Shown: positions 33,708-62,850 of the stretch, piece by piece
How positions within the stretch are numbered: position 1 is the stretch's first letter
How the letters are laid out: the number at the start of each line of letters is the position of its first letter
Source: a virus
Length of the DNA: 64,000 nucleotides
Virus record (IMG/VR): IMGVR_UViG_3300005529_000007
Span: 3,169-67,168 of that record
Strand: one strand, 5' to 3'
Made by a program: the position numbers and the translations under genes
Notes under the pieces: generated by a model
Seen by the model: only the letters and a program-made list of their open reading frames with translations
Told to the model about the DNA's origin: nothing
The model's database searches: none

Positions 33708-33723
33708 TTACTTCCTCCGTTAA

Positions 33724-38876: not shown

Positions 38877-38907
38877 AGGTGCGACTTCCTCCAATTTTGT
38901 CTTGCAA

Positions 38908-42017: not shown

Positions 42018-42027
42018 TGTTCCTCCA

Positions 42028-42060
42028 AGATTAGACGCCTGAGAAGGGTGTATCTTGTCA
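42028..42060 (-). promoter_or_regulatory. Phage ECF-sigma promoter P3
   Basis: TGACAAGAT-N13-GCGTCTAATCT. Confidence 0.78.
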
Positions 42061-49277: not shown

Positions 49278-50786
49278 CTACTCCAAGTCTTTGCTTGGGT
49301 ATTCGTACAACACTTTGCCCTTGAATCTGACAGGAGCGGGAACATATTGGGATTTCCACTCCTTCAGACTGTCGCGGTGAACTTTTTTTATGTCCCAGAT
49401 AGGCAACACTCCGTTGAGTAATGCCTTCTTCATCTTGTGGAACCGCTCGCCTTCGCGCCAGTCGGCACCAATGGAGATGTGCTTTCCTCCATCTGCCTCG
49501 AAGGTCTTGACCGAAAACGGGAACCTGGTCTGCCAGCCAGAGGGCAGGTACTTCACCAGGCTCCTGGACAACATCAACGGATGCACGCCTCTTGTATGCC
49601 CTTGTATGGACATCTTCAATTCCTTGTGGTAGCAGATGTCCCAGATCATCTCGCCCAGGCCCTTGGCTTGGTGAGTATTGGCCGTAGCCAGCGCCAGGGC
49701 ATAGCCATCCGGCAACACAGTCGGGTGCCAGGTAGCTGTCGGCGTCCTCGCAGGAATGGGCACGCCCGAAAAGAGATGGTCAAACATGTCCCGGACATCC
49801 TGCTCACTGGGAGCGATGCTCAAAGGCACAACCTTCACGGGCGTCTTCTCTGTCGGGGTCGTGATCCCCCAGCGTCCCTTGAAGTCCCAGCCCACATGCC
49901 TCGGGAACCCGCCGCGCTTAATTAGGTACAGCGCCAGCAGAGCGTCATCGTCCGTGTCCTTGAAGTACGCCAGGAGGTTCCGCAACTTGGCCGCAAGTAC
50001 CGTAGGATTAGTTCCGTTCCCCGATCTCGTCACCAGCCCTGGGCAATGCACACACAGCTTCGCCAGGGTGATGCTGATAAAGGCCAGCGCTGGGCTGTCT
50101 AGCCAGCTCGGAAACGTGCGGTACTCATAGCCGTGGGTCTGTAGCCTAAAGTCCCCCGGCATCCCGTAATGCTGGCCCAGTCGATCCCCGCCTCGCCTCT
50201 CGGCCATCTCTCGCGTGGGATAGACGCCCATGCCAAGCAGATCCTCGGTGAGATTGTCCAGGGCACGGACCTCATCGGCTCTCGTGGGCCGCTTGCGTCC
50301 CATGTGCACATGCCCGCCAATCCCGTCACCAAAGACAAATGCCCCACAGCGCCATTGGTACGTCGTAATACCTTCCACTAAGGTGGACATCCACCTCAGG
50401 GTGCTCAGAATGCTCGCGCACACACGCAGCGCACACCGGCTCGGGTGAGGCCGAATCTCTGCCAGTCGCCCGTTGTTGTCTGCGCCAAACGCTGGCCCTT
50501 GTTGCAAGCCCAGGTGATGTGCATCCACCCGAGAATCCTCATCTCTCGTCAGCCCACTGCTCACGAACACGAACTCCGGGTCAGCTCCCAGCTTGAAGCG
50601 ATTCACATACCGCCTCTGCGGGCCGAACTCGGGCAACTTCTGGAGCCGTTTCAACCAGCTCTCTAGCTTCTGGTCGGAGACCGTGTAGCCCAACGGGAAC
50701 GCACGGTGGATTCCCTCCGGCGCAGAGATCCCGTGGCTGATGGCCACCCGATAAAAGGCATCCTTGAGTTTCACAAGTTCGCTCAT
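49278..50786 (-). CDS. phiEco32-like COOH-NH2 ligase (paralog 2) with C-terminal extension
   Basis: GADPEF, AEIRP, GGHVH, YGMPGDFR and EYRTFPSW motifs. Confidence 0.83.
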   Translation of the reverse strand: MSELVKLKDAFYRVAISHGISAPEGIHRAFPLGYTVSDQKLESWLKRLQKLPEFGPQRRYVNRFKLGADPEFVFVSSGLTRDEDSRVDAHHLGLQQGPAFGADNNGRLAEIRPHPSRCALRVCASILSTLRWMSTLVEGITTYQWRCGAFVFGDGIGGHVHMGRKRPTRADEVRALDNLTEDLLGMGVYPTREMAERRGGDRLGQHYGMPGDFRLQTHGYEYRTFPSWLDSPALAFISITLAKLCVHCPGLVTRSGNGTNPTVLAAKLRNLLAYFKDTDDDALLALYLIKRGGFPRHVGWDFKGRWGITTPTEKTPVKVVPLSIAPSEQDVRDMFDHLFSGVPIPARTPTATWHPTVLPDGYALALATANTHQAKGLGEMIWDICYHKELKMSIQGHTRGVHPLMLSRSLVKYLPSGWQTRFPFSVKTFEADGGKHISIGADWREGERFHKMKKALLNGVLPIWDIKKVHRDSLKEWKSQYVPAPVRFKGKVLYEYPSKDLE

Positions 50787-50980
50787 AGTTCGGTCCTCGG
50801 CTCCAAGTGCACCAGCCCTCCACAAGAAGAACAAATCACGTAGGGAAATGGCATCGAATTCACGGATGTTTCATGCACGCTGCCACACACGCTACAAGCT
50901 CCCCACATCCCTCCTACTTCTTCTGCGGCAGTAACCCCGTCCAGCTCGTAGATCTCCCCGTCTACATGTTGCTCAGCCAT
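50783..50980 (-). CDS. Zinc-ribbon protein
   Basis: CSVC...CSSC; ATG 50980. Confidence 0.55.
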   Translation of the reverse strand: MAEQHVDGEIYELDGVTAAEEVGGMWGACSVCGSVHETSVNSMPFPYVICSSCGGLVHLEPRTEL

Positions 50981-51453
50981 CTTTTGAACTCCCGTAACTG
51001 CTGTATGGTCAACTTGGCCATAGGCCCATAGACTCTCTTTATTTGGTGTTCGTGACGAACTTTCTTGATCTGAAACGGCTCCCTCATCCAGGACAAGGAC
51101 TGCAACCGCTGCCAAGGATGGTAGTAGTTCCATAAGGTCTGGCTGGCTGCTGACACGGGCATATCCAGCCCCGCGATCCGCCCCCATGAGGCTGAGTTGG
51201 AGATAATGTTCTCCCGGTCGAACTCGTAGAGGTAAACGGTTTTGTCCTGCGAGATCCGTAACACTTTCTCCCAAAGCTGGCGCGTGGGCTTGCCTAGATA
51301 GGTAAACTGACGCTGTCTACCACTCCCTGCAAGCACCAGCACCCTAGTGGGATAGTTCCCAGGGAATGGCTTGGGCTTTGTGCCAGTCATGCTCATTCCC
51401 CGCAACTGCGCGAGCGCCATCTTCACTACGATTTTCGGTGTAAACTTCTTCAT
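50962..51453 (-). CDS. Hypothetical basic protein
   Basis: ATG 51453 (MKKFTPK). Confidence 0.55.
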   Translation of the reverse strand: MKKFTPKIVVKMALAQLRGMSMTGTKPKPFPGNYPTRVLVLAGSGRQRQFTYLGKPTRQLWEKVLRISQDKTVYLYEFDRENIISNSASWGRIAGLDMPVSAASQTLWNYYHPWQRLQSLSWMREPFQIKKVRHEHQIKRVYGPMAKLTIQQLREFKRWLSNM

Positions 51454-51577
51454 GTTTTCGCCTTCTTTGCCGAAAGCTCCTTGAATGCCTGCCACAGCGT
51501 CCACACGGTCGTGGAGAAACACTGCACCCGCTTGATCTCGTTATTCCCGTTCCTGGTCCACACCCAATAGCTCGGAC

Positions 51578-52264
51578 TCAATCCGTGCATTGGCCCTGGC
51601 TCGACGTAGATTCCGTGTCGTTCAAGCCAGAACTGTTGAATAATGTTGAGTGACGAACCTGATGAAGTGTCATCTCCAGTGGCAGCCATCTGTCCATGTC
51701 GAACTTCCATCGCTCCTGACATGATCCTCCGCACAGGGGAACTCCCCATTTCTGTTTCTTCGTATAGTCCTTGCAAACAACGCACTTGCCCTTTTCAAGG
51801 AGCTCCTTGTACGTATTGACGAGCAGCACGTTGCAGTTCCACCAGGATTTCTTGCTGTCGTGCTTGTGCAGGAATCTCTCTGCTCCGCCGTGGCATACCG
51901 TTCTACATGCCCGGCAGACGGAGAACGTCCCGTACTCTTGAGCCACCCCAATCCAGAACCGATATTCCCAGTTCTTCAGGTTCCCAGGCTTCGGGTTAAA
52001 GGCCGTCGTGACCTTCACGAAGCCCATCGGGGTGAACTTTTGCGGCGTACTCCTATTGCACCAGGTACAGATCCAGATCCCATTTCGCAAGATCTTGGCC
52101 GAGGAACCATACGGCAACTTGCACAACGGACATCTATCGTCCGTGTCATATCGCCCTCGGGTCTTCTCCCAATGCGTGGCCTCCCTGGCCCTGACGGGCA
52201 TCTGGGGCTGGCGTGCCCCGTAGGGATACACGATGTTTCTGATTACCCAGAAGGGGACTTTCAT
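51578..52264 (-). CDS. Multi-Zn-finger hypothetical protein
   Basis: Several CxxC pairs; SD AGGAG. Confidence 0.65.
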   Translation of the reverse strand: MKVPFWVIRNIVYPYGARQPQMPVRAREATHWEKTRGRYDTDDRCPLCKLPYGSSAKILRNGIWICTWCNRSTPQKFTPMGFVKVTTAFNPKPGNLKNWEYRFWIGVAQEYGTFSVCRACRTVCHGGAERFLHKHDSKKSWWNCNVLLVNTYKELLEKGKCVVCKDYTKKQKWGVPLCGGSCQERWKFDMDRWLPLEMTLHQVRHSTLFNSSGLNDTESTSSQGQCTD

Positions 52265-52271
52265 GTCTCTC

Positions 52272-52613
52272 CTAGTTCACGAACGAAACTTCGATTCCGT
52301 TTTCAGCAAAAAGTCGAGTAATGTTTTTTTCCCGGTCAGCGTCATGCAGCGACGGGTCGTCATTCGTTGCCATTAGGTGGTCACCGACAAAAGAGCTGGA
52401 GAGCCCCTCGTCGTCGAAGAGAAAAGACATTTGTGTGGGACTATCCAACAAGTCCCGAGGCGAAACCACGCCTAGAATCTGATCCTCCCTCAACCCACAC
52501 GCCAACGAGAAGAAGCCCAAGCAGCACATCTTCCTGTCAGATTTGCGCAAGAGATAGGACCTATGTCCTCCTTCTCCCCTCAACCACTGCTTGCGATCAA
52601 TGACGAGTTTCAT
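52272..52613 (-). CDS. Hypothetical protein
   Basis: WLRG...MCCLG...ND motif pattern common in phage early genes. Confidence 0.7.
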   Translation of the reverse strand: MKLVIDRKQWLRGEGGHRSYLLRKSDRKMCCLGFFSLACGLREDQILGVVSPRDLLDSPTQMSFLFDDEGLSSSFVGDHLMATNDDPSLHDADREKNITRLFAENGIEVSFVN

Positions 52614-52630
52614 AATGCTTTAGTTCCTTC

Positions 52631-52819
52631 CTACGGACACATGTACTCGTATGCTTTGGTTTCCCGTTCTTCCCCACATTGAGCGCACACATCCATTTCG
52701 TATTGCCGAGTTCGTTGCTCGTCGGTACGCGGGTCATACGGGCCTAGCTTGGGGTGCGTTATGGTGCGATTCAAGCAGCACATCACCCATCTATGTAGAC
52801 CGAACCTGCACCAGTTCAC
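52631..52819 (-). CDS. Small Zn-binding protein
   Basis: CRFGLHRW...CAQCG. Confidence 0.6.
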   Translation of the reverse strand: MNWCRFGLHRWVMCCLNRTITHPKLGPYDPRTDEQRTRQYEMDVCAQCGEERETKAYEYMCP

Positions 52820-53097
52820 TGTTCCCTCAATTCCTCCACCGCCACAACCTGGCTGGTGTAAACCAATCTCCCTGCGGTCGCACCCAGCATCTTCCCCAAC
52901 TCCCTGAGGCTCTCATCTCTCGCCTCCATCACCATGCCGACGCGCTTGCCCACAACGGGCTCATCGCAAAGAATGAACGTCCCACTCTCGTCTCTCAACT
53001 CCCCGCTTTCAGTCGTCTTCTGGAGTCTCACCCACGTCTTAGCTGCGTGGTCAATTAGGTACTGGCTCCCTGTCTCAGTCGTTACGAGCTGTTTCAT
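52816..53097 (-). CDS. Hypothetical protein
   Basis: TETGSQY...TSQVV; SD GGAGG. Confidence 0.65.
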   Translation of the reverse strand: MKQLVTTETGSQYLIDHAAKTWVRLQKTTESGELRDESGTFILCDEPVVGKRVGMVMEARDESLRELGKMLGATAGRLVYTSQVVAVEELREQ

Positions 53098-53120
53098 GTG
53101 CCTCCCCCTAAAAAATTTAA

Positions 53121-53290
53121 GACCTGGGGAGAGGAGGCCTAAACACGCCCCTTCACCCAGGTCGTTTCACAGGGAGTTGAGCTTATCGTGCGCCAAGTGG
53201 CGAGCGGCAAGAAGGCCCCTCCTTGTCAAACTCCACCTGTCTCCCTGTATTGGCATAGGCCCACTTAGTGGACGCTGTCCAGGTCGCACT
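53121..53290 (-). ncRNA. Candidate structured RNA or regulatory leader
   Basis: Branched stems plus a terminal GACCTGGG/CCCAGGTC hairpin and U-tract. Confidence 0.4.
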
Positions 53291-53301
53291 AGAACGCAGT
53301 G

Positions 53302-53727
53302 TTACCGCGAGGTCTTTTTTCTCCTCGCCTTGCGTCCGCTGCGATTGCTCGCAGATACTTTGCGTGCTGCCAACAGGGGCATGGTCTTCATGCCCTTGGC
53401 GAACATGGTAATGACGTTCCCGCTCCGCCCCTTGAAGGTGCCGAGTGCTACATAACCCGCCTTGACGGCGGCCTTCTGGGCAGCGAGCTGGTTGTCGTTC
53501 AACGTAATGAGCTTGCAAGGGGCGCTGTCTTCGGAATCCTCAATGGATGCAACGATGACCTTGATGGCCTCTTCTTCATTCGTGACCAGGTTGTCATCTT
53601 TCAGGCTCTCGATCTCGTCTTTGTCTTCAGAGATCTGTTGTTTCAAATCCGCGTCGCTCGGGAAGGTGTAGATCACCTCCACCCCGCAACATCCTGGAAA
53701 ATCGTCTCGATTGATTTCCGTCTCCAT
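53302..53727 (-). CDS. Divergent GNAT-like protein
   Basis: FPGCCG...LITLNDNQ...GY..LGTF pattern; SD GAGGAG. Confidence 0.5.
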   Translation of the reverse strand: METEINRDDFPGCCGVEVIYTFPSDADLKQQISEDKDEIESLKDDNLVTNEEEAIKVIVASIEDSEDSAPCKLITLNDNQLAAQKAAVKAGYVALGTFKGRSGNVITMFAKGMKTMPLLAARKVSASNRSGRKARRKKTSR

Positions 53728-53830
53728 ATTTCTCCTCTTCTTTGTGAATGTCTCCTCCCGGCAGAACCGTGAGGCCTACAAAACCGTGCTCTACATCCGC
53801 AGAAAGCATGTTCCCACTCCTGTGCATAAA

Positions 53831-53856
53831 AAAGGCCACTATTTCAAGTGGCCTTT
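53831..53856 (-). terminator. Intrinsic terminator
   Basis: AAAGGCCACT/AGTGGCCTTT followed by a U-tract on the - strand. Confidence 0.75.
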
Positions 53857-53875
53857 ATTCTGCGTAGGCGCTGGG

Positions 53876-54229
53876 CTACTTCGGCGCAGCCTGCAAGTTG
53901 GATGGAGGCGACGGGAGCACAGGTATCAGTACCTGGACTTCTCCGTCACAGGCACTTTCCGCACCTCCTGTTCCGACATCCGAGACGTTGTAGAAGATCG
54001 TCTGGCCGTCAGTGAGGCCCACTGTGTCCACATACTGAAGGGCGTTGATTCCCGTGGCGTAGGGCGTCGGGGAGCCATTGCAAACTCCCTTGGCCGTGCC
54101 CTTATAGATGTTGTACGTCACACCTGGTGTCGTGGAAGCGTTCCACGAGAGTGTGACGGAATGTTGTCCAGGGGTATTGGCAAACGCCATCCCTCCCAAA
54201 GCAAGTACAACAAGCAAGCGTTTAATCAT
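53876..54229 (-). CDS. Exported fibronectin type III domain protein
   Basis: Signal peptide; SVTLSWNAS...YNIY...YVD...YNVS...GAES...PSPPSNL. Confidence 0.82.
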   Translation of the reverse strand: MIKRLLVVLALGGMAFANTPGQHSVTLSWNASTTPGVTYNIYKGTAKGVCNGSPTPYATGINALQYVDTVGLTDGQTIFYNVSDVGTGGAESACDGEVQVLIPVLPSPPSNLQAAPK

Positions 54230-54331
54230 TTCTTCCTCTTATTGTGGTCCTTGACATGATCCAACAACTTCTCCCAGCGCTTAAACTTCTTCTCGCAATG
54301 CCCGCAACGATGTAGTCTTTTCTTGGCCACC

Positions 54332-54619
54332 TCATCTCCCCTCGTGCACTGAGTAAGCCACCGCAGCACTCTCAGTGCCGATCAGTGCCCATTTGAAAAT
54401 CTTGGCCGCTCGCTTATGCCCGTGCTTGTTCAGCTCATGCGTAGCGAGGATCTCCAGCCCCAGGTCGGCTGCACATGAGCCGTACCCAATCGCTGGTCCA
54501 TGCGTAACAAATGGACGGGCTATGGGGTTTATCTCCCGATAGCCCCCTCTGTCCAGGCGCTGCATTGTGAGCTGGCAATCTGTGGCCGTCAGGGCCATCA
54601 ACAGGGCGAGTGTCTTCAT
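54332..54619 (-). CDS. Membrane hypothetical protein (E-x-N-P family)
   Basis: D..LT...GGYREINPIARP followed by hydrophobic helices. Confidence 0.6.
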   Translation of the reverse strand: MKTLALLMALTATDCQLTMQRLDRGGYREINPIARPFVTHGPAIGYGSCAADLGLEILATHELNKHGHKRAAKIFKWALIGTESAAVAYSVHEGR

Positions 54620-54828
54620 CGCTTGAATCCAAGAACTGTAAGGGCCTCTTGTATCTGGGCATCTCGCTTCGCCTTCGCTGCCTCAATGCGTTGTATTTCT
54701 TCTTCGCGGCACTTGGGGCAGAGGTAAGATAGAGAAGCGTAATCAGATGCCACATACTGCATCTTCACCCCATGCTTGCAGCAGTAGCCATTCCTAGCGA
54801 GCACATTGAGGGCTTCATCACGATTCAT
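54616..54828 (-). CDS. Small Zn-finger protein
   Basis: CCKHG...CPKC. Confidence 0.6.
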   Translation of the reverse strand: MNRDEALNVLARNGYCCKHGVKMQYVASDYASLSYLCPKCREEEIQRIEAAKAKRDAQIQEALTVLGFKR

Positions 54829-54837
54829 AAGTTCTCC

Positions 54838-54865
54838 CCACTACCCAAAAACGGGTCACACAGAC
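54838..54865 (+). repeat. Dispersed repeat R6
   Basis: CCACTACCCAAAAACGGGTCACACAGAC. Confidence 0.8.
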
Positions 54866-54883
54866 CCAAGTTCCTTTTATCCC

Positions 54884-55259
54884 CGCGAACCCCGGCATCT
54901 CCAGAGCGTATGCAAATCCCCGCCCTATCCGTAAAGAACTTCTCCGACAAACTTTGTTCCTTGTTTAACGGGACGCCCGGAGTAAAGGGGTACTAATCGG
55001 TGATATAAGCTCCCCGATTTCCCCCACCCATACGGTTTTCACCAAGGGCCTACCTACGTCGCCCACAGAGGGAACAAACTGATTGCCGTGCCCATCCAAT
55101 CCAGACAGGAGACAAGATGTCCTGTTCTAGAGAAGCACAAAACGAGAGCGAGCTTATGATCGCCCACTCCCATACTTCCCCCGGCCCGTCCGAGCCGCGA
55201 ACCTGGACTCCTTGCCTCGAAAAGCAAGGCCCGTGTCGCTCGGTTGCCGGGGTTCTGCG
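54884..55259 (-). ncRNA. Candidate large structured ncRNA (~375 nt)
   Basis: 11-bp perfect end-to-end helix, UUCG and GAAA tetraloops, many G-U pairs on the - strand, no credible ORF. Confidence 0.65.
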
Positions 55260-55265
55260 AAGAAC

Positions 55266-55583
55266 TTAATAGAAAATTCCATTCCAATTCTGATTGTCGT
55301 AATACGTTTCATACTGCGGCTTGGGATCTGTCTTGACCTTCACCAGGACATCCTCACAGCTTTTCCTGCCGCAACAGGGCACATGGCCCTTGGCCAAATG
55401 AAACGCAGGTCTGGCACAGCCCCGGCAGATAAACCTTGGCAATTTCCCCCTGCCTTTACAGGTCACACAAATGGGATCTTGCTTCTGGTATCTCGGGTCC
55501 ACTCGTGTCCCAAGCCCTCTACAAATGGGACACACGTCCACTACGATTTCTTTGCCAGTCGCTTGCTCGCTAGAATTCCCCAT
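55266..55583 (-). CDS. DnaJ-type CxxCxGxG zinc-finger protein
   Basis: CPICRGLG and CVTCKGRG. Confidence 0.65.
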   Translation of the reverse strand: MGNSSEQATGKEIVVDVCPICRGLGTRVDPRYQKQDPICVTCKGRGKLPRFICRGCARPAFHLAKGHVPCCGRKSCEDVLVKVKTDPKPQYETYYDNQNWNGIFY

Positions 55584-56971
55584 TGACCCTCGTTCTCCAC
55601 AAGGCGCTGGTCCCAATAAACCCTGCGCCCGTTTTTATCCACCTTCCCAAACATATCCAGCTTCCAATTCCCCTCGATGTCCGTGGGATCAGGAATGACA
55701 TGCTCAACACCCTTGAGAATAGTTTCCATTGCCAACGTGATCGTTGGGGAGGCAACACCCTCCGCGTGCGGGAAATTTGTGTACGTCAACAGCGCCGCGA
55801 GCACCTTGGAATTAGTCGCAATCATCTCGCGGGCCGCAGCCACGTCGCACGTGTTAATCACCTTCCGCACATCCGCCGCATTGGCCTTCCAGAGCAAATC
55901 ACACAGGCCAAGCCGCCCGAAGTTCAGGGCCACACGGAACAGCTCCATTGTCAAGTGACCAATCGCCGGATGGCACAACCAGAAGTTGCTCAACGTGCGG
56001 TATTCAATGCCATACGCAGGCAATCTATACTCGCCCGCGAGACCGTAGAATCTCCGCCGAATTGGATTGTCGATATTGGCAGCCATGCTGACCGCGCATA
56101 CACCCAGGACCGCATCCAACGAACGCACGGTCCGCGACACAATATCGTCATTCGTCGGGATCACACCATAGGTCAAATGTCCACCCGCGAATCTGTACTG
56201 CAACCGCCTGGGCTCCGCGACTTCCTGCCCCTTGTCGCCATAGATATTCCGGCTGGGCGTGCATCCCAGGATCACGTACTTCTCGTCGAGCTCCGCGAGC
56301 GTAGATAGGGGAATCTCAACCACATTCTCCAAGGACAACTTCGCATTTGCGTGCTTCTTCCGCGCCGCACTCAATGTGCGATACAAGCCCTCACGTATGT
56401 TGTACGTGACTGATTCCAGGCAATTTGCGGGATTCACATTGAACTCCGCCTGGAAGCCATCCCAAAATGCACGCGCACCCACGCCCACACCGTCAGGAGC
56501 TCCGCCTTCCTGCATTTTGGCCACACGCTTCTGGAACTCCTGCTGACTCCCCTCATTACTCTCCAGGAAATCAAACGCATTGAGCACCTGGTCGCCCACC
56601 TTCACGAAGATCTCCGGGTCGCTTCCTGTGGTCCAGGCCGTGCCTTTCCGCATGACATACTTCCCATTCAAAAGCGAATCTGCCAGCCTGCTCTGCAATT
56701 CCTTGGTCCGCTCTTCAGGGAGCACCTTCCAGGGCATAGTTGCCGGAATCTTGTTTGGCACAGTCATCGCAGCAATCGTGTTGTTGTGGCCGTGCAACAC
56801 GTGCAATTCCGGCCACACATAGGACGTGTTTATTTTGCCCGTGTGATCGTAGGTGCCCTCTGCACCCATAACCAGGGCCTCACGTCCCCCGAAGTATCCC
56901 GCGCCCCACTCGGGCGGGACCTCCACCGCAGTACCTGGGGGAATATCCTTAAATGGAATCTTGTTGCTCAT
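55541..56971 (-). CDS. phiEco32-like COOH-NH2 ligase (paralog 3)
   Basis: GSDPE, DGFQAEFN, GCTP, RFAGGHL, RRRFYGLAGEYR and EYRTLSNFW motifs. Confidence 0.88.
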   Translation of the reverse strand: MSNKIPFKDIPPGTAVEVPPEWGAGYFGGREALVMGAEGTYDHTGKINTSYVWPELHVLHGHNNTIAAMTVPNKIPATMPWKVLPEERTKELQSRLADSLLNGKYVMRKGTAWTTGSDPEIFVKVGDQVLNAFDFLESNEGSQQEFQKRVAKMQEGGAPDGVGVGARAFWDGFQAEFNVNPANCLESVTYNIREGLYRTLSAARKKHANAKLSLENVVEIPLSTLAELDEKYVILGCTPSRNIYGDKGQEVAEPRRLQYRFAGGHLTYGVIPTNDDIVSRTVRSLDAVLGVCAVSMAANIDNPIRRRFYGLAGEYRLPAYGIEYRTLSNFWLCHPAIGHLTMELFRVALNFGRLGLCDLLWKANAADVRKVINTCDVAAAREMIATNSKVLAALLTYTNFPHAEGVASPTITLAMETILKGVEHVIPDPTDIEGNWKLDMFGKVDKNGRRVYWDQRLVENEGQWGILASKRLAKKS

Positions 56972-56976
56972 GGTAC

Positions 56977-57384
56977 TCAATGTCCTTTCCCAGTGACTTC
57001 AAATCTCTTGTGAAAGCACAGTTGAACCAGATCAGCCGCGAACTCAATGCACGTATGATGTACTTGATACGCGGCCATCACCTGCTCAACCCATTTGCGG
57101 TCTTCAACAAGGCTAAGCACATCTTTCAACGTAGCCTTGTATAGTTTGAGTTGCAGCTTCTCCATGACCATCTTGGCTGCCCCCTTGGCATACTGCTCTC
57201 TTTCATGCTGTCGTCTCACCAAGTTGTGCCAAGCGACTTGTTCAGGAGTACCTTCTTGCAGCAAACGTTCATCGGTTACTGTCCTGAGCCCATGCACGAA
57301 TTTTCCCCTTGAGCGAAGTGCCCTCCCGAGAGCGAGCCCAAAAACCGTCGCACGTTCACGTCTTTTGGGCGTAAAAAAGGCCAT
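56977..57384 (-). CDS. Hypothetical protein (start uncertain)
   Basis: ORF abuts the ligase gene; its 5' end overlaps a terminator. Confidence 0.5.
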   Translation of the reverse strand: MAFFTPKRRERATVFGLALGRALRSRGKFVHGLRTVTDERLLQEGTPEQVAWHNLVRRQHEREQYAKGAAKMVMEKLQLKLYKATLKDVLSLVEDRKWVEQVMAAYQVHHTCIEFAADLVQLCFHKRFEVTGKGH

Positions 57385-57650
57385 AGGCAAACCCCTTCTG
57401 CCTATGGCCTCTTCGCTCTGGGGGAGAGACCTCCAGGTTTCCCTAGAGGCGGGTTCTTATAGAACCCTCACAATGGACCTAATCCACTGTGAGCGTTCCA
57501 CTGGAACGCCCGACGACTAGCACGGATAATTGCACCCGCAATAAGTGCGGGTGAGTCAAAACGAGGAAGGTACGTACCCAAGTTCGGATAGGTGCCCTCT
57601 CCTTCCAGATGGGAGCTTATGCCGCTCCCTGGCGTATTACCTCGTTTTAT
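57373..57650 (-). ncRNA. Candidate structured ncRNA (~280 nt) with abutting hairpins and a terminator
   Basis: At least seven strong helices; GAAA loop and G-U pairs fit the - strand. Confidence 0.6.
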
Positions 57651-57741
57651 GAGGCCGAACAAAACAGCCACTTTTCTTGCAATCATGCTTTGCCAGTGGC
57701 CGCTTCTTCAGGCGTGTAAAAAGCCTCTTGAGCAATTTCAT
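57637..57741 (-). CDS. 34-aa basic peptide (not in ORF track)
   Basis: MKLLKRLFTRLKKRPLAKHDCKKSGCFVRPHKTR after GGGAG. Confidence 0.4.
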   Translation of the reverse strand: MKLLKRLFTRLKKRPLAKHDCKKSGCFVRPHKTR

Positions 57742-57757
57742 GAATAGCTCCCATCAA

Positions 57758-57788
57758 AAAAGGGAACGGAGAATGTCCGTTCCCTTTT
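57758..57788. terminator. Intrinsic terminator (bidirectional)
   Basis: AAAAGGGAACGGA/TCCGTTCCCTTTT. Confidence 0.75.
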
Positions 57789-57951
57789 ATGTCGTTAGCT
57801 ATTGCTACTCTACGGCGTGTGTGACCCCGGCAACATCTGCACCAGCTCATGCTGCACAGAGCGCCTAAGCGCCCTCTGCTTGATGTCATCCAGGGAAACC
57901 ACCACCAGCAGCAACAACAAAACCACCGCAATCCACTTCATCGCTTCCCTC

Positions 57952-58665
57952 CTAATTGCGAGTACAATACGCTTTCGCAGGGGCGCTTGCATAGTGGGTT
58001 AATTCCAGCGCTATACCAATCGGGTGCCAATTCCCTGTCGGGGTGAATCTATACAGGGTTTGGTCATACGACCATCCCCATACTGACGCTTCCCCTGACG
58101 GCGCTTCCACACTGCCCGGATTCCAGTTCGGTGGCGTGTGCGCAGCATCGCACCACGTGGCCACCGGATACCAGCACCCATAGCCATCGCACGTGATTGC
58201 GAGACCTGTTCTTTGCAGCACATCCACCGCACTCTCGATGTACGTGTTCAAATTAAAGTACTGTGTCCCGGACTTGCATATCGCGCCGCCTGTATAGGCA
58301 ATCGCATACGTCACCGAGCCCGCGTAAACAGTCCCTTGAACCATTTTCCCTTGCAAGGCGTTGTTCGTAGCCCGCATGGCCTGCATGTTGCTGTCCCAAT
58401 ATCCGTTCACCGCAACACCGTTGACCGTAAACGTCAGCGCCGTAGGCGTTGCATAGCACGTCCAGGGAATGCAGGTGTTACCGTTGCAGTACTCGGTGTC
58501 CTCGGAGCCGCCGAATACATCAAACTCAAATACATCCGACGGGAAATCACTCCCCGAAGAAACGATCTGCGTACTTGTGGGCGGCGTCACCTCTTGCTGC
58601 CCTTGAGCGGCCATCACGAAGATCCCAAGTATCAACGAAACTAACACTCCACACCATCGCGTCAT
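57952..58665 (-). CDS. Exported Cys-rich protein
   Basis: Signal peptide MTRWCGVLVSLILGIFVMAAQG; beta-rich with paired Cys. Confidence 0.7.
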   Translation of the reverse strand: MTRWCGVLVSLILGIFVMAAQGQQEVTPPTSTQIVSSGSDFPSDVFEFDVFGGSEDTEYCNGNTCIPWTCYATPTALTFTVNGVAVNGYWDSNMQAMRATNNALQGKMVQGTVYAGSVTYAIAYTGGAICKSGTQYFNLNTYIESAVDVLQRTGLAITCDGYGCWYPVATWCDAAHTPPNWNPGSVEAPSGEASVWGWSYDQTLYRFTPTGNWHPIGIALELTHYASAPAKAYCTRN

Positions 58666-58672
58666 TTTGTCG

Positions 58673-58729
58673 CTCCTATATGCCTAGATTAGGCCGATAA
58701 AATCCAGAGCCCGAAGAGGCATTTAGGAG
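58673..58729 (-). promoter_or_regulatory. RBS-sequestering stem in the 5' UTR
   Basis: CUCCUA-A-AUGCCU pairs with AGGCAU-A-UAGGAG, which contains the SD. Confidence 0.55.
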
Positions 58730-58797
58730 TCCCCCAGGTTCAGAGAACTTAATCCCATTCCCTGGGGGGTGCGTTGCGAGCAGCAACAACGTCGAGA

Positions 58798-58968
58798 TTA
58801 TCTTGGCCACTTTCCTTTGGTCACCATGATGCCGCGTACAATGTCGGCTACATGTTGTGGGTCCGCCAAACGCTCTTGCCATACAGCTAATGCCTTCCTG
58901 GCCTCTCTACGCAACTGCCGTTTGGAAACGTGGCGAGTTGCCCGATGTTGAAATATGCCTGCTCGCAT
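58798..58968 (-). CDS. Small basic protein
   Basis: ATG 58968 after AGGAGG. Confidence 0.55.
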   Translation of the reverse strand: MRAGIFQHRATRHVSKRQLRREARKALAVWQERLADPQHVADIVRGIMVTKGKWPR

Positions 58969-59006
58969 ATTGCCTCCTGTTAATGTGTTTCTAGTGCTAA
59001 CCAACC

Positions 59007-59171
59007 CTAACTCGAAGGATTCATAACTTCGTGGCAAACTGCATGACACTCGCCACAACAACCTGCGTCCGCCGGACAGCGACACCCATTGCCATATTCG
59101 TCATCATTTGTGTATCCGTCCCATGGACAGCTAGGACAGAACCCTTCGTCGTGACAAACAGGGCATGTCAT
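59007..59171 (-). CDS. 54-aa protein with 10 Cys (not in ORF track)
   Basis: MTCPVCHDEGFCPSCPWDGYTNDDEYGNGCRCPADAGCCGECHAVCHEVMNPSS. Confidence 0.55.
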   Translation of the reverse strand: MTCPVCHDEGFCPSCPWDGYTNDDEYGNGCRCPADAGCCGECHAVCHEVMNPSS

Positions 59172-59179
59172 TTCGCTTT

Positions 59180-59572
59180 TCACTCAAATCCCTCCCACCG
59201 CTGATTCTTGCCCTCGCCCATGGTCCGCACCATACTGCCCGGCTGCGCCATACGCTTCTTGGCCTCACCCTCGCTAATCACTCTCCACTTGAGCTGCGAA
59301 TCACCCGTGTCCATGTACCTATGGCGTCTCGCGCCCTCTTTGGGCTGGCTCCATAGCCATCGCGTCGTTTTCCATTTCTGCTCAATACGATCAATCTCGC
59401 CCTGGAGGAAATCATCCAGTCTCTTGTACTCGCAGCCCTCTATGGGACGCATCCCAGGAGGCAATGTCCCCAATTTCGACCTGAGGAACCATTTGCGGAC
59501 ACGGCTGCGCCCATCCTCGAAGCTCTTTAGCTCCGTTTCGTATTCCTCTTTGGACTTGTAGATCTTGCTCAT
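59180..59572 (-). CDS. Hypothetical protein
   Basis: ATG 59572 overlaps the upstream stop. Confidence 0.6.
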   Translation of the reverse strand: MSKIYKSKEEYETELKSFEDGRSRVRKWFLRSKLGTLPPGMRPIEGCEYKRLDDFLQGEIDRIEQKWKTTRWLWSQPKEGARRHRYMDTGDSQLKWRVISEGEAKKRMAQPGSMVRTMGEGKNQRWEGFE

Positions 59573-59928
59573 CGCTTGTTCCACTCCTTGAGAAGGTGTC
59601 CCACAAACGCGGGCCAGAGCATATCCATTCCCTTGCCCCATTGGCTCCAACCACACGAACAACTCGCCAGCGATGGGTTTCTCTCGCGTCCATCCATCGT
59701 AAACACGGGGACGTGTTGTAGCATGAACTTCACGGGTATATTCACGTCTAGTTCTTTACCCATTGGGATGTGCCTCCGCGGCTTTCGCCAAACGATCACC
59801 GTACGTTTGTCTAAACACGGTTCGCAGCTAAAATATGTCGCCTCGCCCTCTGGGCGCATCCAAGTAGCAGGTTCCTTGTGGCAATCGTCACACAGTAAAC
59901 TCGAAGGTTCGATTTTGATCCAAGCCAT
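59569..59928 (-). CDS. Zn-finger hypothetical protein
   Basis: CDDC, CEPC and CSCGW motifs. Confidence 0.6.
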   Translation of the reverse strand: MAWIKIEPSSLLCDDCHKEPATWMRPEGEATYFSCEPCLDKRTVIVWRKPRRHIPMGKELDVNIPVKFMLQHVPVFTMDGRERNPSLASCSCGWSQWGKGMDMLWPAFVGHLLKEWNKR

Positions 59929-59952
59929 ATCGTCCTTCCCTACAACACGCGA

Positions 59953-60180
59953 TTAAGTTCTCTCCACCGCCCCCAAGTGCGAGTCGCTCTGTGCGACCCG
60001 TTTTTCGGGTAGTGCTAGAACAAGCTCTTGCCCATAGGGCACCACAACCCAGTCATCCATATGTGTCTTGGTATGTCCCGCAAGGTTGCGCATCATATCT
60101 CTCGCAACCTCCAAGGACATGTAGGAGGCCGACAATCTCCGCCAGCCCCCTGTTCGCAACTTAAGCGCGAGCTGATACAT
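59953..60180 (-). CDS. Hypothetical protein
   Basis: ATG 60180 after GAGGAG. Confidence 0.55.
   Translation of the reverse strand: MYQLALKLRTGGWRRLSASYMSLEVARDMMRNLAGHTKTHMDDWVVVPYGQELVLALPEKRVAQSDSHLGAVERT
59987..60014 (-). repeat. Dispersed repeat R7 (inside a CDS)
   Basis: Reverse complement CACTACCCGAAAAACGGGTCGCACAGAG. Confidence 0.78.
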
Positions 60181-60388
60181 TACGGCTCCTCTTGGTCGGC
60201 ATGGGATTCGCCAACAAGGCGAATTTCCCTCGTGTCTCATGCCCATTGATGCACTTCACGGTCCCAAGACGGTAATTCCCATCCGTCTTGACCAGTCTCC
60301 AATGCGAGAAACAATGCACAATCTGTGTCCCGTGCTTCTCAACCACCTTGCGACACGCAAACTTCGCCAGACGTAGTTCCTTGTTCAT
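60161..60388 (-). CDS. Hypothetical protein
   Basis: Coupled ORF. Confidence 0.5.
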   Translation of the reverse strand: MNKELRLAKFACRKVVEKHGTQIVHCFSHWRLVKTDGNYRLGTVKCINGHETRGKFALLANPMPTKRSRNVSARA

Positions 60389-60597
60389 GACTCTCTCCCA
60401 GGCGTACCGTGTGGGGCCAATCCTCGCAGTGCTCTTACCTGGTTGGCCCTCGTGATTAGCTTCGTGGCATTCTCATGCCATCTATCCAGCATGTTGCGAT
60501 CTACCACACGTGAGACACGCTCCACTAGCGTGTGCTCTCGCTTGGCATTCGTTTCCTCCACGTGGCGCTGAAGCACCACGGGATCGAAATTGCTCAT
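60385..60597 (-). CDS. Hypothetical protein
   Basis: SD AGGAG. Confidence 0.55.
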   Translation of the reverse strand: MSNFDPVVLQRHVEETNAKREHTLVERVSRVVDRNMLDRWHENATKLITRANQVRALRGLAPHGTPGRES

Positions 60598-60728
60598 AAC
60601 GCTCTCCTGAGGCGAGTAGCCTCACACAGGGGCGCATATAGCGCCCTAGTGCGCGATCACTCGCACAAGCTCATAAAGCCCGTACCACATCCACGCGCTC
60701 ACGATGCACGCCATGACGAACTTGGGAT

Positions 60729-60938
60729 TCATGGCTTCTCCCGCGTTATTGGGTCGTTGTCGTAGGAATACCCCTGATCGTTGATCTTGCGCCTGATGGA
60801 ATCGAACACCACGCGCGCTTCTCCCTCAACCCGCGTCCTCCACAACCCAACGTCATGGACGATCATCGGATCTCTGTGAGGATTAGCCTCATCCCTCTGC
60901 AAGAGAGTCAGCTTGATGATGTAGCGAGGCTTCTTCAT
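60729..60938 (-). CDS. Hypothetical protein
   Basis: SD GGAGG. Confidence 0.55.
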   Translation of the reverse strand: MKKPRYIIKLTLLQRDEANPHRDPMIVHDVGLWRTRVEGEARVVFDSIRRKINDQGYSYDNDPITREKP

Positions 60939-61008
60939 GGCAGCCTCCCAAGAACATGCACAACAAGCTCCGCCAGAACCGCAATACTTGCGAGTACTAC
61001 GAGAACTT

Positions 61009-61206
61009 TCAAGCCGTACATGGGTCGTCCCTCCATGTCTCGCAAGATGACCTGAACTCCATGTAGACGTTCGTCATCGCGCTCATGTCCCCAAACTCTA
61101 CGTATCTGTCCCACGCATCTAGCACGTTCTCCTCGCACATCATGAGAGCCGCTTGCAGGCCCTTGGGATCACGCTCAAGCTCGTGCTCGTAATCCCCCTT
61201 GTGCAA
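61009..61206 (-). CDS. Hypothetical protein
   Basis: Short ORF in the early block. Confidence 0.4.
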   Translation of the reverse strand: MHKGDYEHELERDPKGLQAALMMCEENVLDAWDRYVEFGDMSAMTNVYMEFRSSCETWRDDPCTA

Positions 61207-61276
61207 ATCATGCGTGCGACTTGCGAGCGGGTGGAAAAAGCGCGGGTGAGCGTATGCCCACCCGCATGGGAGAGAA

Positions 61277-61690
61277 CTACTCTGCGAGGCTGTTCAGGCG
61301 TTCGAGCGCGGCGATGTCGTCGGCGCTCACGGTTTGCTGCGTGCGCAAGGCGTCGGCGTACTTGGCCATGTCGGCATTGCCGGACTTGCTCGCCTTGGCC
61401 GCAATGCGCTCAAGGGCTTTCTGCTCACGGGGGGTGAGCTTGAATTTCCCGTCTGCACGGGCAGCCGTGCGCTTGTTAATACTTATCCCGATCTGGTACG
61501 ACTCGCCCGTGTTGGTATCTAGCACGGCGATGTTGTGCGCTCGGGTAGTAAACCCATACGGGCGTTCTTCCGCCTGCGTCCAGTCCACGCACGCAAGTAA
61601 TACTTCCGCAACCGTGAGGCGGTCGAGGGCACCATTGGGCGGTTCAGTCGTGTTCGTAATCTTCAACGCGGGTTGTTTCTTGTCGTCCAT
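61277..61690 (-). CDS. First early gene, hypothetical protein
   Basis: SD AGGAG; followed by a terminator-like hairpin at ~61235-61265. Confidence 0.7.
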   Translation of the reverse strand: MDDKKQPALKITNTTEPPNGALDRLTVAEVLLACVDWTQAEERPYGFTTRAHNIAVLDTNTGESYQIGISINKRTAARADGKFKLTPREQKALERIAAKASKSGNADMAKYADALRTQQTVSADDIAALERLNSLAE

Positions 61691-61814
61691 ACTCGCAATC
61701 TCCTGTAGGGCCTAAGCCCGGATGTGCTTGGCCGTTTGGCCGAGCCGCCGAACTCCCTGTCCTCCAGGGTCCAAAGTAAGTGGCCTGTTTTCAAGCACTT
61801 GCAGAAATCCGGCC

Positions 61815-62282
61815 CAAGTCCTTGATTCCAAAGGACTTATCTCCTCCTGCGTGCGTACACCCGCTTGTACGCAAGTGCCCGCGTATCACGGGCGTGCGCA
61901 GATTAACTAAATCAGGCGCGGGCGCACCCATATGCGCGTGCGTGCGTATGTCATTGATTGCGCGTGCGAGCGCGTATGTTTAGGCTTGTCGCCAGGCGGG
62001 TGGCCTTATCATCTTGGATGGGACCCATCGTCTACAAAATTTTAGAAACTTAGAACTAACTCATTGATTCTAAAGGGGGGCGGCAGAACTGAGGCGGGGG
62101 TCCTATAAGTCCTTTATAATGAGTGGAATGACACTTTTTCTCTAAATGGTTTATTTTCAACAAACTAAAAATGTCTCTCTCTCTACCCCCCTTATATATT
62201 AGGAGAAAGATATAGAAGAGAGAGAGACAGAATCGTACCGCTGAGTGCATTTTGAAGGAAAAGATCCCCCAACTTATTGATA
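61815..62282. promoter_or_regulatory. Divergent non-coding control/packaging region with IHF-consensus sites
   Basis: WATCAA-N4-TTR on the - strand at 61815-61827, 62057-62069 and 62270-62282; palindrome AAGTCCTT-N7-AAGGACTT. Confidence 0.55.
62172..62246 (+). repeat. (TC)n/(AG)n hairpin plus CGTACCGCTGAGT element, copy B
   Basis: Homologous to 42092-42163. Confidence 0.75.
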
Positions 62283-62351: not shown

Positions 62352-62384
62352 TGACAAGAAATGCCCTCCTGTGGCGTCTAATCT
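62352..62384 (+). promoter_or_regulatory. Phage ECF-sigma promoter P4 (late operon)
   Basis: TGACAAGAA-N13-GCGTCTAATCT. Confidence 0.78.
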
Positions 62385-62850
62385 ACGCGAGCCTAAGTTG
62401 CCCTCCAAGCCCTACACACCCCCCGCCTGGTATCGACCCGCAGCAGAGCTGATGGCCCGCAATAGCCTCTCCCTCAAGCAGGCCGTCAGCGAGCTGAAAG
62501 TCCAGATCACCCCTGAAGAGTGCGAACTCGTCTCTCGTAGGAAGGAATTCCAACAAATACTCCGTGAAGAACGAAACAAGTTCCACACGGAAGTTGCCGA
62601 TCAGCCAGGACGCAACAAGTCCACGGCCCTCGGCATGATGCAAGTCGCCATCGAGAAGCTCATGGTTGAAGGGGAATGGGACAAAGCCGTAGCAGCCATC
62701 GAGAAACTCGCCAAACTCGAAGGCTGGGTCGGGTCCGACAGCAACATAAACATCTTCTCCGGCCTCACTGCAAGAGACATTGCCGAGGCCAAAGAGCGCA
62801 TATCCAAGCAGATTGAACCTCGAAGCCCTCAAGAGATTCTCCCCAACTGA
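62371..62850 (+). CDS. Terminase small subunit (true start probably TTG 62398 or later)
   Basis: HTH-like N-terminus, AIEKLAKLEG motif, overlaps terL. Confidence 0.7.
   Translation: MASNLREPKLPSKPYTPPAWYRPAAELMARNSLSLKQAVSELKVQITPEECELVSRRKEFQQILREERNKFHTEVADQPGRNKSTALGMMQVAIEKLMVEGEWDKAVAAIEKLAKLEGWVGSDSNINIFSGLTARDIAEAKERISKQIEPRSPQEILPN

Follow-up and report, generated by a model that had tools for sequence, protein, structure and literature searches.

Stable phage RNAs include the phi29 packaging RNA and the P4 CI RNA, to which can be added 3'-UTR-derived sRNAs that use the terminator of their mRNA. In lambdoid phages, the sites of protein- or RNA-dependent processive antitermination (N/nut, HK022 put) comprise one or two hairpins over ~15-70 nt with conserved linear boxes; in the N type, an arginine-rich protein of ~100 aa from a nearby gene binds the hairpins of the nascent early transcript. 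The RNA antitoxins of type III toxin-antitoxin systems (ToxI-like) are built from tandem direct repeats of ~34-45 nt, and Cas6 substrates are, in general, shaped like short G+C-rich hairpins whose loops span 3-5 nt. Rfam includes both a packaging-RNA family and CRISPR direct-repeat families. Racrs, or solitary repeat units, are phage-borne and are defined, in PMC10651486, by their likeness to a known CRISPR repeat; the same paper describes a single repeat-length unit, usually right behind a promoter, and a collection of 17,823 repeats, with IMG/VR solitary repeat units listed in the supplements.

Here we analyze an element in a 64-kb stretch of DNA (64,000 nt, the window) from the complete 67-kb genome of an uncultured soil phage, whose capsid protein is at most 31% identical to that of any deposited phage and which belongs to a clade without a cultured relative. 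A first-pass annotation had read the element as a discrete ncRNA or a hairpin array, and we retain part of this reading: an extreme fold, strand-specific features, two bounding terminators, and an overlapping 72-aa frame (ORF72) that looks non-coding are all consistent with it, but no homologue was found. We tentatively favor the view that the stretch specifies an orphan, stable, early minus-strand phage RNA, which would be either a stand-alone ncRNA or a processed 3' end.

Compared with N/nut, the likeness is one of anatomy only: hairpins that would form in the nascent transcript just 5' of an intrinsic terminator, a GNRA-type loop (the hairpin that carries it, P8, lies 20 nt from the terminator), and a basic ORF nearby, although its candidate peptide has 34 aa rather than ~100 aa. 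As in ToxI arrays, a structured RNA would be followed by an intrinsic terminator and a small protein gene on one strand, but the element has no direct-repeat family longer than 13 nt (the longest within 57300-57800 is 13 nt, in 2 copies), and the 137-aa downstream ORFan has no PHROG or Pfam family, its sole database match being itself. The element would share with the phi29 packaging RNA, the P4 CI RNA, and 3'-UTR sRNAs a discrete, structured, and early character in the range of 80-200+ nt and a 3' end set by a terminator or by processing, while it differs from them in size, in its hairpin run, in its genomic setting, and in matching no Rfam family at gathering score. Like the Racrs (PMC10651486), it would be a small intergenic phage RNA in an accessory or anti-defense setting, for which a hairpin-bearing decoy of host RNA-binding proteins can be envisaged; unlike them, it has a multibranch fold of 270 nt made up of five hairpins that do not resemble one another, with no repeat likeness found among Rfam families and no promoter recognized.

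A run of perfect hairpins between two terminators

The hairpins, further helices, and 12-bp terminator named in the first-pass annotation are all present in the sequence when it is read on the minus strand, to which all positions in this section refer. At the 5' side lies an upstream intrinsic terminator (57756..57790), with a 9-bp G+C-rich stem (57784-57776/57770-57762), a 5-nt loop, a U6 tract (57761-57756), and an A-tract 5' of it. Next comes 57746..57755, which can pair perfectly over 10 bp with the distant segment 57617-57608; this pairing appears in the MFE structure of the 388-nt fold and covers the ribosome-binding site of a possible micro-ORF (57637..57741). Hairpin H0 (57611..57629; 6-bp stem GGGAGC/GCUCCC, 7-nt loop) belongs to the MFE structures of the 318-nt and 246-nt contexts; the 10-bp pairing, which is the alternative in the 388-nt fold, would take up the 3' arm of this hairpin. 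The core consists of P3 (57533..57553; 8-bp perfect stem, 5-nt loop), P5 (57493..57509; 7-bp perfect stem, loop AGU), P6 (57468..57492; 11 bp including 2 G.U, 3-nt loop), P7 (57451..57467; 7-bp perfect stem, loop AUA), and P8 (57429..57450; 9 bp including 2 G.U, GAAA tetraloop of the GNRA type), with P5 to P8 abutting at spacers of 0-1 nt. The 3' intrinsic terminator (57373..57410) has a 12-bp stem (57410-57399/57389-57378), a 9-nt loop, and a U run at 57378-57373. A terminator scan with simple rules flagged neither terminator; in our reading, the 9-nt loop of one and the pairing of A-tract with U-tract in the other fell outside the rules of the scan.

While P3, P5-P8, and the 3' terminator were present in every fold context tried, the helices around them depended on context. 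The GGAGAG/CUCUCC pairing proposed in the first-pass annotation belongs to a closing helix between 57597..57609 (UCUGG..GGAGAG) and 57417..57428 (CUCUCC.CCAGA), which encloses P3-P8 as a multibranch loop. It reached pair probabilities of 0.85-0.98 in a 246-nt context but was replaced by other pairings in the 388-nt fold. A further 9-bp perfect helix can form between 57648-57640 and 57566-57558, the latter strand being CCUCGUUUU; this strand (57558..57566) was unpaired in the MFE structures of the 318-nt and 246-nt contexts, and forcing the helix cost 5.8 kcal/mol relative to the MFE.

P6 and P8 contain four non-Watson-Crick pairs between them, each of which is a G.U pair on the minus strand, and those of P6 become A.C mismatches on the plus strand. 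Together, the G.U pairs, the GAAA loop, and the 12-bp/U6 terminator point to a minus-strand RNA, and the terminator at 57373..57410 is likely its 3' end.

An orphan element in a hypervariable early region

The element is a single-copy feature of the genome and lies in the early block, 5' of an operon of an ORFan, an amidoligase, and a zinc-finger gene. The flanking genes are all on the minus strand, the same strand as the GAAA loop and the U-tract terminator. Copies of a promoter-like motif, GCGTCTAATCTT, were found at 33723(-), 38907(-), and 42027(-), and with one mismatch at 62374(+), but none near the element, whose block is read before these promoter-like motifs of the phage begin. A 43-aa membrane-type ORF (57941-57810, judged by its translation) precedes the upstream terminator, and a 237-aa ORF further upstream had no relative in viral contigs. 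The same letters were found in a second assembly at a depth of 154, in an identical contig without variants from a DNA run that is possibly the source sample, which excludes a misassembly. Among public sequencing runs this was the only one to contain the stretch, and no RNA run contained it.

Four of five related phages retain the amidoligase and zinc-finger genes, with 34-47% identity, whereas the interval up to 60161 is non-homologous. Even relatives with a ~90% identical capsid protein have no DNA in common with this phage at the hypervariable region of the element. In the relatives, tightly packed small ORFs occupy the space 5' of the amidoligase gene, with no structured gap there.

Sequence searches returned nothing similar. 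No match was found in 50,697 phage records by blastn of the element at a distant setting or by megablast of 50000-62000, and comparison of 57340-57800 with 14 amidoligase loci (blastn with word size 7, and nhmmer) gave nothing beyond chance. With the amidoligase protein as a query, we found 14 viral loci, 80 metagenome loci, and 2 genome loci, none of them more than 43% identical. A single-sequence covariance model, searched against 93 sources (the window and 92 loci; 479,088 bases), scored 315 bits on the element, 35.8 bits on its own reverse strand, and E 0.24-1.2 at three weak places, with no homologue in the 92 loci; in 49 related phage records it matched 0/5 and 0/44. Since no homologue was found in these searches, there is no covariation and no sign of selection on the structure. 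The small ORFs had no tblastn match in loci L002-L166, and elsewhere in the 64-kb window neither complements nor repeats of the element exceed 13 nt. MFE scans of the regions 5' of the amidoligase in 56 loci, of 4 close relatives, and of 5 whole related genomes revealed no comparable stability, the best three places being ordinary terminator-type hairpins. We found no description of such an element in the literature that we searched. Judged by these searches, in which no other genome showed anything similar, the element is an orphan.

Known RNA families were likewise absent. The search of Rfam 15 (4227 models) suggested in the first-pass annotation gave 0 matches above the gathering thresholds over the entire window, and ARAGORN found 0 tRNA or tmRNA genes there. 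In E-value mode, 57200-57900 returned 13 weak matches, of which 11 fell at 57708-57852 (the upstream terminator and its flanks, resembling terminator-type sRNAs), one at 57830-57855, and one, with an E-value of 5.5, on the plus strand, where it spans the 3' terminator (57334-57415).

No Rfam family matched within 57416-57707 at E <= 10, and this lends no support to the earlier suggestion of a sponge for a Cas6-like protein. An RNA anti-CRISPR or Cas6 decoy, in which one or more hairpins would mimic a host CRISPR repeat and sequester Cas proteins, suits an early, hypervariable region of accessory type, and the hairpins do share the general shape of Cas6 substrates. Nevertheless, the four hairpins differ in sequence save for the common form of P5 and P7, and they measure 17-25 nt with only 0-1 nt between them. 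Phage-borne solitary repeat units work in this way according to PMC10651486, but their layout there, one repeat-length unit behind a promoter, is not the one seen here, and we consider such a decoy very improbable.

The predicted structure exceeds chance expectation

The 318-nt minus strand gave an MFE of -148.7, whereas its shuffles averaged -105.3 (z -7.84) and 0 of 100 of them folded as well, and the 388 nt between the two terminators gave an MFE of -177.3 (z -8.70). When both strands of the whole 64 kb were scanned in 200-nt windows at 50-nt steps, 57301-57500(-) was the most structured (GC-corrected z -6.2), while windows away from this locus reached at best -3.1 (minus strand) and -3.6 (plus strand). 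In five related complete genomes (3325 windows of 200 nt, both strands), the best z was -3.5, compared to -5.6 for the element on the same scale.

The four abutting perfect hairpins had been described in the first-pass annotation, and our counts show that such a run exceeds chance. With a run defined by stems of at least 7 and gaps of at most 1, the four-hairpin run occurs once in the window and on the minus strand only, whereas 40 first-order Markov simulations of the window gave a longest run of 2 in 34 cases and of 1 in the other 6. The longest run in the five related complete phage genomes was 3, in one case that lies inside a 503-aa ORF and is absent from the MFE fold there. P5 and P7 are of one form, GSGUUCY-NNN-RGAACSC, and both stem positions at which they differ are changed on both sides, the only within-sequence hint of compensatory change. 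The motif GTTCYNNNRGAAC matches P5 and P7 alone in the window (2 matches compared to 0.18 expected; 2 of 100 shuffles reach 2). A scan of viral contigs for two P5/P7-type hairpins 20-32 nt apart yielded at least 162 stretches, and the 15 best-folding of 327 scored matches were glycine/serine-rich coding repeats with a 9-nt period.

On the other hand, perfect symmetry could also act in duplex DNA. P5 and P7, as perfect 7-3-7 palindromes of one form found only here, with centers 42 bp apart, might be 17-bp operator-like sites spaced by four helical turns for a dimeric DNA-binding protein; alternatively, the region could be functionless palindromic DNA, a recombination remnant, or the scar of a mobile element. 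P5-P6-P7 jointly make up a larger imperfect palindrome with 25-nt arms, the plus strand of the 318-nt stretch folds well too (MFE -130.0, z -6.61), and the region is non-homologous even among the phages with similar capsids. We nonetheless hold a DNA-level feature to be improbable, since G.U pairs in P6, P8, and the terminator stem favor one RNA strand, the GNRA loop, U-tract, and long-range helices would be meaningless in duplex DNA, and no DNA-binding protein was recognized among 16 neighboring ORFs. Flanking 10-nt direct repeats (9/10 identical, 419 nt apart) are at chance level, with ~4 such pairs expected by our estimate, and we rejected them as a target-site duplication. Hairpin promoters of the N4 type were also rejected, as there are just two such hairpins, separated by 42 nt and not placed in front of genes; the 1647-aa protein of the virion block has no Pfam or PHROG match. 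In general, palindromes at the DNA level are another source of perfect stems when only one sequence is at hand, and this counts against our favored reading as well.

The overlapping reading frames lack coding support

Conservation of ORF72 (57686-57468(-)) at the protein level had been named in the first-pass annotation as evidence that would speak against an RNA, and none was found: the frame has no homologue among the 5.8 billion clusters that a word search could reach and no Pfam or PHROG match. Its coding score of -0.04 lies above most off-frame chunks (95th percentile -0.15) but under the 5th percentile of the true coding chunks of the phage (0.07; mean 0.29), and we read no ribosome-binding site before its AUG. 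A 141-aa ORF on the other strand (57095-57520(+)) scores -0.20 and runs antisense to every neighboring gene. Both frames are open, and the hairpins would be incidental if either were real, an explanation that we regard as extremely improbable.

The possible micro-ORF lies at 57637..57741(-). It would encode a very basic peptide of 34 aa, MKLLKRLFTRLKKRPLAKHDCKKSGCFVRPHKTR, with GGGAG 6 nt before its AUG, and it takes up the 5' third of the unit, which counts against our favored reading. The peptide is rich in lysine and arginine, has no Pfam match, and shows an H-x-C-x4-C-x4-H spacing that could, by its pattern, hold a metal ion. The coding score of the micro-ORF (-0.11, over only 34 codons) is not coding-like, and in the 388-nt MFE structure both its ribosome-binding site and its AUG lie in helices.

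A possible leader of the downstream operon

Our main rival explanation is that the element acts in cis within an early polycistronic transcript, as a structured leader or insulator before the ORFan-amidoligase-zinc-finger operon. In one form, the terminator would attenuate transcription, and a factor bound to the nascent hairpins, possibly the basic peptide, would permit read-through in a manner resembling processive antitermination; in another, the hairpins would be only processing or stability signals for the flanking mRNAs. The orientation that the element has in common with all its neighbors speaks for such a role, as does the lack of a recognized promoter of its own. We recognized no sigma-70-type promoter near 57650-57800(-), nor any between the upstream terminator and the element, and the unit may therefore exist only within longer read-through transcripts.

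Moreover, a strong terminator stands directly before an operon that must still be expressed. The first gene, the ORFan (56977..57390(-)), has a stop that overlaps the start of the amidoligase gene, and it measures 137 aa when read from a TTG; a call made elsewhere gives it 135 aa, from an ATG inside the terminator arm. The part from 57300 on has a coding score of 0.09, and the part at 57301-57390 one of -0.15; the GUG at 57297, with AGGGG before it, appears the more likely start. The segment immediately before the terminator, 57425-57406, shows complementarity to 57335-57325 (11 nt, 91%) and to 57323-57304 (20 nt, 80%), the latter overlapping the likely ribosome-binding site of this downstream ORF; the 3' strand of the closing helix (57417..57428) is complementary to these two segments as well. 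Further points in favor of a cis role are that several long-range pairings compete and that the micro-ORF adjoins the element upstream, with its last codons overlapping the 9-bp alternative helix and its stop inside that helix.

However, we found no convincing antiterminator, as the sole upstream segment that could pair with the 3' arm of the terminator lies 297 nt away and has 2 mismatches in 13 nt, and the terminator forms in all folds. Classical attenuators do not look like this leader, in which rigid hairpins fill the ~230 nt from the stop of the leader to the terminator, no riboswitch, T-box, or leader family was matched in Rfam, and the relatives keep the amidoligase and zinc-finger genes without a structured gap in front of them. 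Considering both sides, we view a cis-acting leader as possible, though on the unlikely side.

A candidate protein-binding RNA

If the stretch indeed specifies a discrete early RNA, as we tentatively favor, its 3' end would come from its own strong intrinsic terminator (57410-57373) and its 5' end either from an unrecognized promoter or from the processing of read-through from the upstream terminator (57784-57762). The RNA would then measure roughly 270 nt (the core) to 380 nt (the whole inter-terminator unit). The five perfect hairpins P3 and P5-P8 would form its core, in which the four abutting ones could stack as a rod. The most likely mechanism would be that of a protein-binding scaffold or decoy early in infection, with P5 and P7 possibly serving as two copies of one binding site; binding itself is purely our inference. 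A candidate partner may be the 34-aa basic peptide encoded just upstream.

A bolder and still less probable proposal is that everything between the two terminators forms a novel, self-contained type of ribonucleoprotein module, in which the 34-aa peptide would bind the twin P5/P7 hairpins of the very transcript that encodes it. The particle would either let host polymerase read through the strong terminators of the early block or serve to divert a host defense protein that binds RNA. Its genes would lie in the part of the genome with the fastest turnover among related phages.

Should it prove to be transcribed and stable, the element would add a new structured RNA to those encoded by phages, in an uncultured soil clade and at a place where anti-defense and host-takeover functions usually lie. 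Comparative methods that depend on covariation are blind to orphan structured RNAs, and those of hypervariable early regions may parallel the orphan early proteins while having escaped notice. The element is a singleton so far, and its value is that of a well-defined candidate for cloning and probing.

The first-pass annotation had also noted that this element, with another at 54.9 kb, brackets a third "ligase" paralogue. This gene (55541-56980; PF14395, phrog_3815) encodes a COOH-NH2 amidoligase and not a nucleic-acid ligase, so it provides no functional link to RNA. The bracketing itself is real: the third paralogue is flanked on its other side by a second structured gap at ~54.83-55.27 kb (z -4.6).

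The element is predicted to fold far more stably than the rest of the window

When the minus strand is read, every helix listed in the first-pass annotation is present in the element (57650-57373). As a 318-nt minus-strand RNA, it has a minimum free energy (MFE) of -148.7 kcal/mol, compared to -105.3 ± 5.5 for 100 dinucleotide shuffles (z -7.84); its plus strand has an MFE of -130.0 (z -6.61), and the 388 nt between the flanking terminators (57784-57762 and 57410-57373, minus strand) reach -177.3 (z -8.70). We scanned the whole window on both strands in 200-nt segments with 50-nt steps and G+C correction, and found that 57301-57500 on the minus strand was the most extreme segment (z -6.2), followed by its neighbours, while the best segments unrelated to the element gave z -3.1 (minus) and -3.6 (plus). 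With stems of at least 7 bp, gaps of at most 1 nt and at most two G.U pairs per hairpin, a run of four abutting hairpins occurs once in the window, on the minus strand only. Run length was two or less in all 40 Markov simulations of the window, and the longest run in five related complete genomes was three, a single case that lies within a 503-aa ORF and is unused by the MFE fold there. Hairpins P6 (57492-57468) and P8 (57450-57429) contain four non-Watson-Crick pairs, each of them G.U when the minus strand is read and A.C when the plus strand is; GAAA caps P8, and the last hairpin has a 12-bp stem with a U run after it. Together, the helices, fold statistics and strand features confirm the feature as real and, by fold z and hairpin-run statistics, exceptional, and they favour reading the predicted fold at the RNA level on the minus strand. 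Hairpins P3 (57553-57533) and P5-P8 (57509-57429) and the terminator were unchanged between the 246-nt and longer fold contexts. The closing long-range helix (57609-57597/57428-57417) had pair probabilities of 0.85-0.98 in the 246-nt context and was replaced by other pairings once the upstream 70 nt were included.

The hairpins overlap a 72-aa minus-strand ORF (57686-57468) whose conservation as a protein would, in the first-pass annotation, have counted against a structured RNA. A search of 5.8 billion clusters returned no homologue, and there was no Pfam or PHROG match. Its codon score was -0.04, on a scale where true 72-codon phage chunks have a mean of 0.29 (5th percentile 0.07) and off-frames a mean of -0.41 (95th percentile -0.15), and a genuine 72-aa gene is scarcely credible here. 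Plus-strand ORFs across the element scored below this ORF and had no family match.

The element is a singleton in a fast-turnover region of an uncultured phage

The window (bases 3169-67168) comes from a viral record of 67,168 bp that has direct terminal repeats and a completeness rating of 100%. PHROG matches identify a tailed phage, with the portal, major head protein, endolysin, internal virion protein and terminase on the plus strand, where the virion block also holds a 1647-aa ORF (21904-26847) with zero Pfam or PHROG matches. The minus strand from about 62 to 28 kb encodes a family-A DNA polymerase, primase, exonucleases, an annealing protein, a sigma-factor-like protein, two integrases and an amidoligase-type gene cluster. 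Two tyrosine-integrase-type genes, 26844-27710 (plus) and 28418-29734 (minus), converge where the late and early blocks meet; the 288-aa one matches just the C-terminal portion of the integrase profile. No deposited phage (n = 50,697) has a capsid protein more than 31% identical to this one, and the clade is uncultured; in IMG/VR there are many relatives whose capsid proteins are 88-91% identical. The sole public run containing the stretch is labelled soil metagenome; its contig is identical, at a depth of 154 with no variants, and the run may be the source of the record.

The amide-bond-forming enzymes, all on the minus strand, comprise two COOH-NH2 ligases matching PF14395 (49278-50834 and, beside the element, 55541-56980), a class-II glutamine amidotransferase (47928-48968) and an ATP-grasp/RimK-like protein (46669-47460); an acetyltransferase-like ORF also belongs to this cluster. 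Because of these family matches, the "ligase paralog" of the first-pass annotation is indeed a ligase, but of the peptide/amide-bond rather than the nucleic-acid type. The cluster is kept at 38-50% identity in four of five related phages, while all its surroundings turn over.

The suggested Rfam search gave zero matches at family thresholds across the entire window, and the element matches no family. Permissive searching of 57200-57900 gave 13 weak matches, none within 57416-57707: 11 fell entirely on the upstream terminator or its flanks (57708-57852), and the others lay at 57830-57855 and, over the 3' terminator, at 57334-57415 (E 5.5). ARAGORN found no gene. In its working, the element would come closest to stable phage-encoded structured RNAs and decoy RNAs, but it is a member of none, and tests for tRNA/tmRNA, tandem-repeat antitoxin RNAs and classical attenuators also failed.

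Sequence searches for RNA relatives were blank in deposited phages and 14 amidoligase loci. We derived a covariance model of 246 positions and 74 pairs from this one sequence and its MFE fold. Across 93 sources (479 kb), made up of the window and 92 loci, the model picked up only the element (315 bits), the element's reverse strand (35.8 bits) and three weak hits (E 0.24-1.2). In two sets of whole related-phage records, it had no match in any of 5 or any of 44; 11 of these records are rated at least 90% complete. In relatives whose capsid proteins are about 90% identical, no DNA shared with 55000-60000 was detectable; the amidoligase orthologues of these phages have 36-43% identity, and unrelated small ORFs fill the interval from the amidoligase to the next shared gene (60161-60388). 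Since the surrounding DNA is unshared too, the lack of a relative is not merely signal loss in one RNA. MFE scans upstream of the amidoligase at 56 loci showed nothing near the element's stability, and the best of 3325 windows on both strands of five whole related genomes had z -3.5, compared to -5.6 for the element on the same scale. The element is thus a singleton, and the early region around it turns over fast.

The element's block is presumably read first

A 12-nt motif, GCGTCTAATCTT, occurs exactly on the minus strand at 33723-33734, 38907-38918 and 42027-42038, and with one mismatch on the plus strand at 62374-62385, ahead of the terminase gene. Every copy precedes a gene block and is oriented with transcription; given the sigma-like gene at 43356-43901, the motif is likely a phage-specific promoter, possibly serving that protein. 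The minus strand from 62 to 43 kb has no copy, and the block holding the element is therefore presumably read first, by host polymerase.

Along the minus strand, a 237-aa cysteine-rich ORFan (57952-58665) carries a signal-like segment at its N-terminus and has no family match and no IMG/VR relative by peptide-pattern search. A 43-aa ORF (57941-57810) with a strong ribosome-binding site, hydrophobic N-terminal helix and charged tail is built like a small membrane peptide (of a holin, toxin or regulator type) and has no family match. Directly after it come an intrinsic terminator (stem 57784-57762, U6 57761-57756), a very basic 34-aa micro-ORF (57741-57637; GGGAG, 6 nt, then AUG), whose codon score of -0.11 covers too few codons to decide, the structured core with its terminator (57410-57373), and an additional inverted-repeat hairpin (57370-57336). 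An ORFan (57390-56977) with a likely GUG start at 57297 precedes the amidoligase (56980-55541) and a zinc-ribbon-type ORF. Past the latter lies a second structured gene-free gap of about 400 nt (55.27-54.83 kb; 54830-55270), which has no Rfam match at E ≤ 5 except one chance microRNA look-alike; it shows a long-range closing helix, then a terminator (54868-54852), and a 601-nt fold z of -4.6.

The main alternative to a discrete RNA is a cis-acting leader, insulator or antitermination site, conceivably N/nut-like, gating the ORFan-amidoligase-zinc-finger operon. No sigma-70-type promoter was recognised near the element, with a consensus that may not suit the phage's host, and this fits a cis-acting site, as do the position of the terminator and the complementarity near the downstream ribosome-binding site, where the segment directly 5' of the terminator complements two segments 3' of it. 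The micro-ORF's ribosome-binding site also pairs perfectly over 10 bp with the 3' arm of hairpin H0 (57629-57611), as part of the 388-nt MFE structure, and its last codons over 9 bp with 57566-57558; each of these competing pairings is individually within chance (an estimated 0.1-0.5 perfect pairs per 500 nt). On the other hand, an antiterminator is absent nearby and relatives retain the amidoligase without any such leader, leaving cis action possible but rather doubtful.

Candidate function

From its anatomy and statistics, we tentatively propose, with somewhat less than even confidence, that the element would be a discrete, very stable early RNA, its stacked perfect hairpins serving as a protein-binding scaffold or decoy. 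Its own terminator would form the 3' end, and the 5' end would be set by a promoter that escaped recognition or would arise when read-through transcripts are processed. Of the first-pass annotation's proposals, a discrete ncRNA or array of hairpins stands as the best reading, while the Cas6 sponge found no support. The layout is unlike that of Racrs, the phage RNA anti-CRISPRs described in PMC10651486, and an anti-CRISPR decoy is very improbable. We regard the element as an orphan and a clean candidate, not yet a discovery.

The most concrete leads on binding would be the adjacent basic peptide and the twin hairpins P5 (57509-57493) and P7 (57467-57451), two versions of one 17-nt form, 42 nt apart centre to centre, that differ at two stem positions, each altered on both sides. 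The form is absent elsewhere in the window (2 matches compared to 0.18 expected; 2 of 100 shuffles reach 2), and apart from this pair nothing within the element hints at a repeated binding site. The pair would suit an RNA hairpin just as well as a DNA operator; a DNA-level palindrome cluster, or a functionless scar, is unlikely. Two GTTC-N5-GAAC units 20-32 nt apart are a common pattern in viral contigs (loci L167-L246), where they fall in 9-nt-periodic coding repeats rich in glycine, serine and threonine in many large phage genomes.
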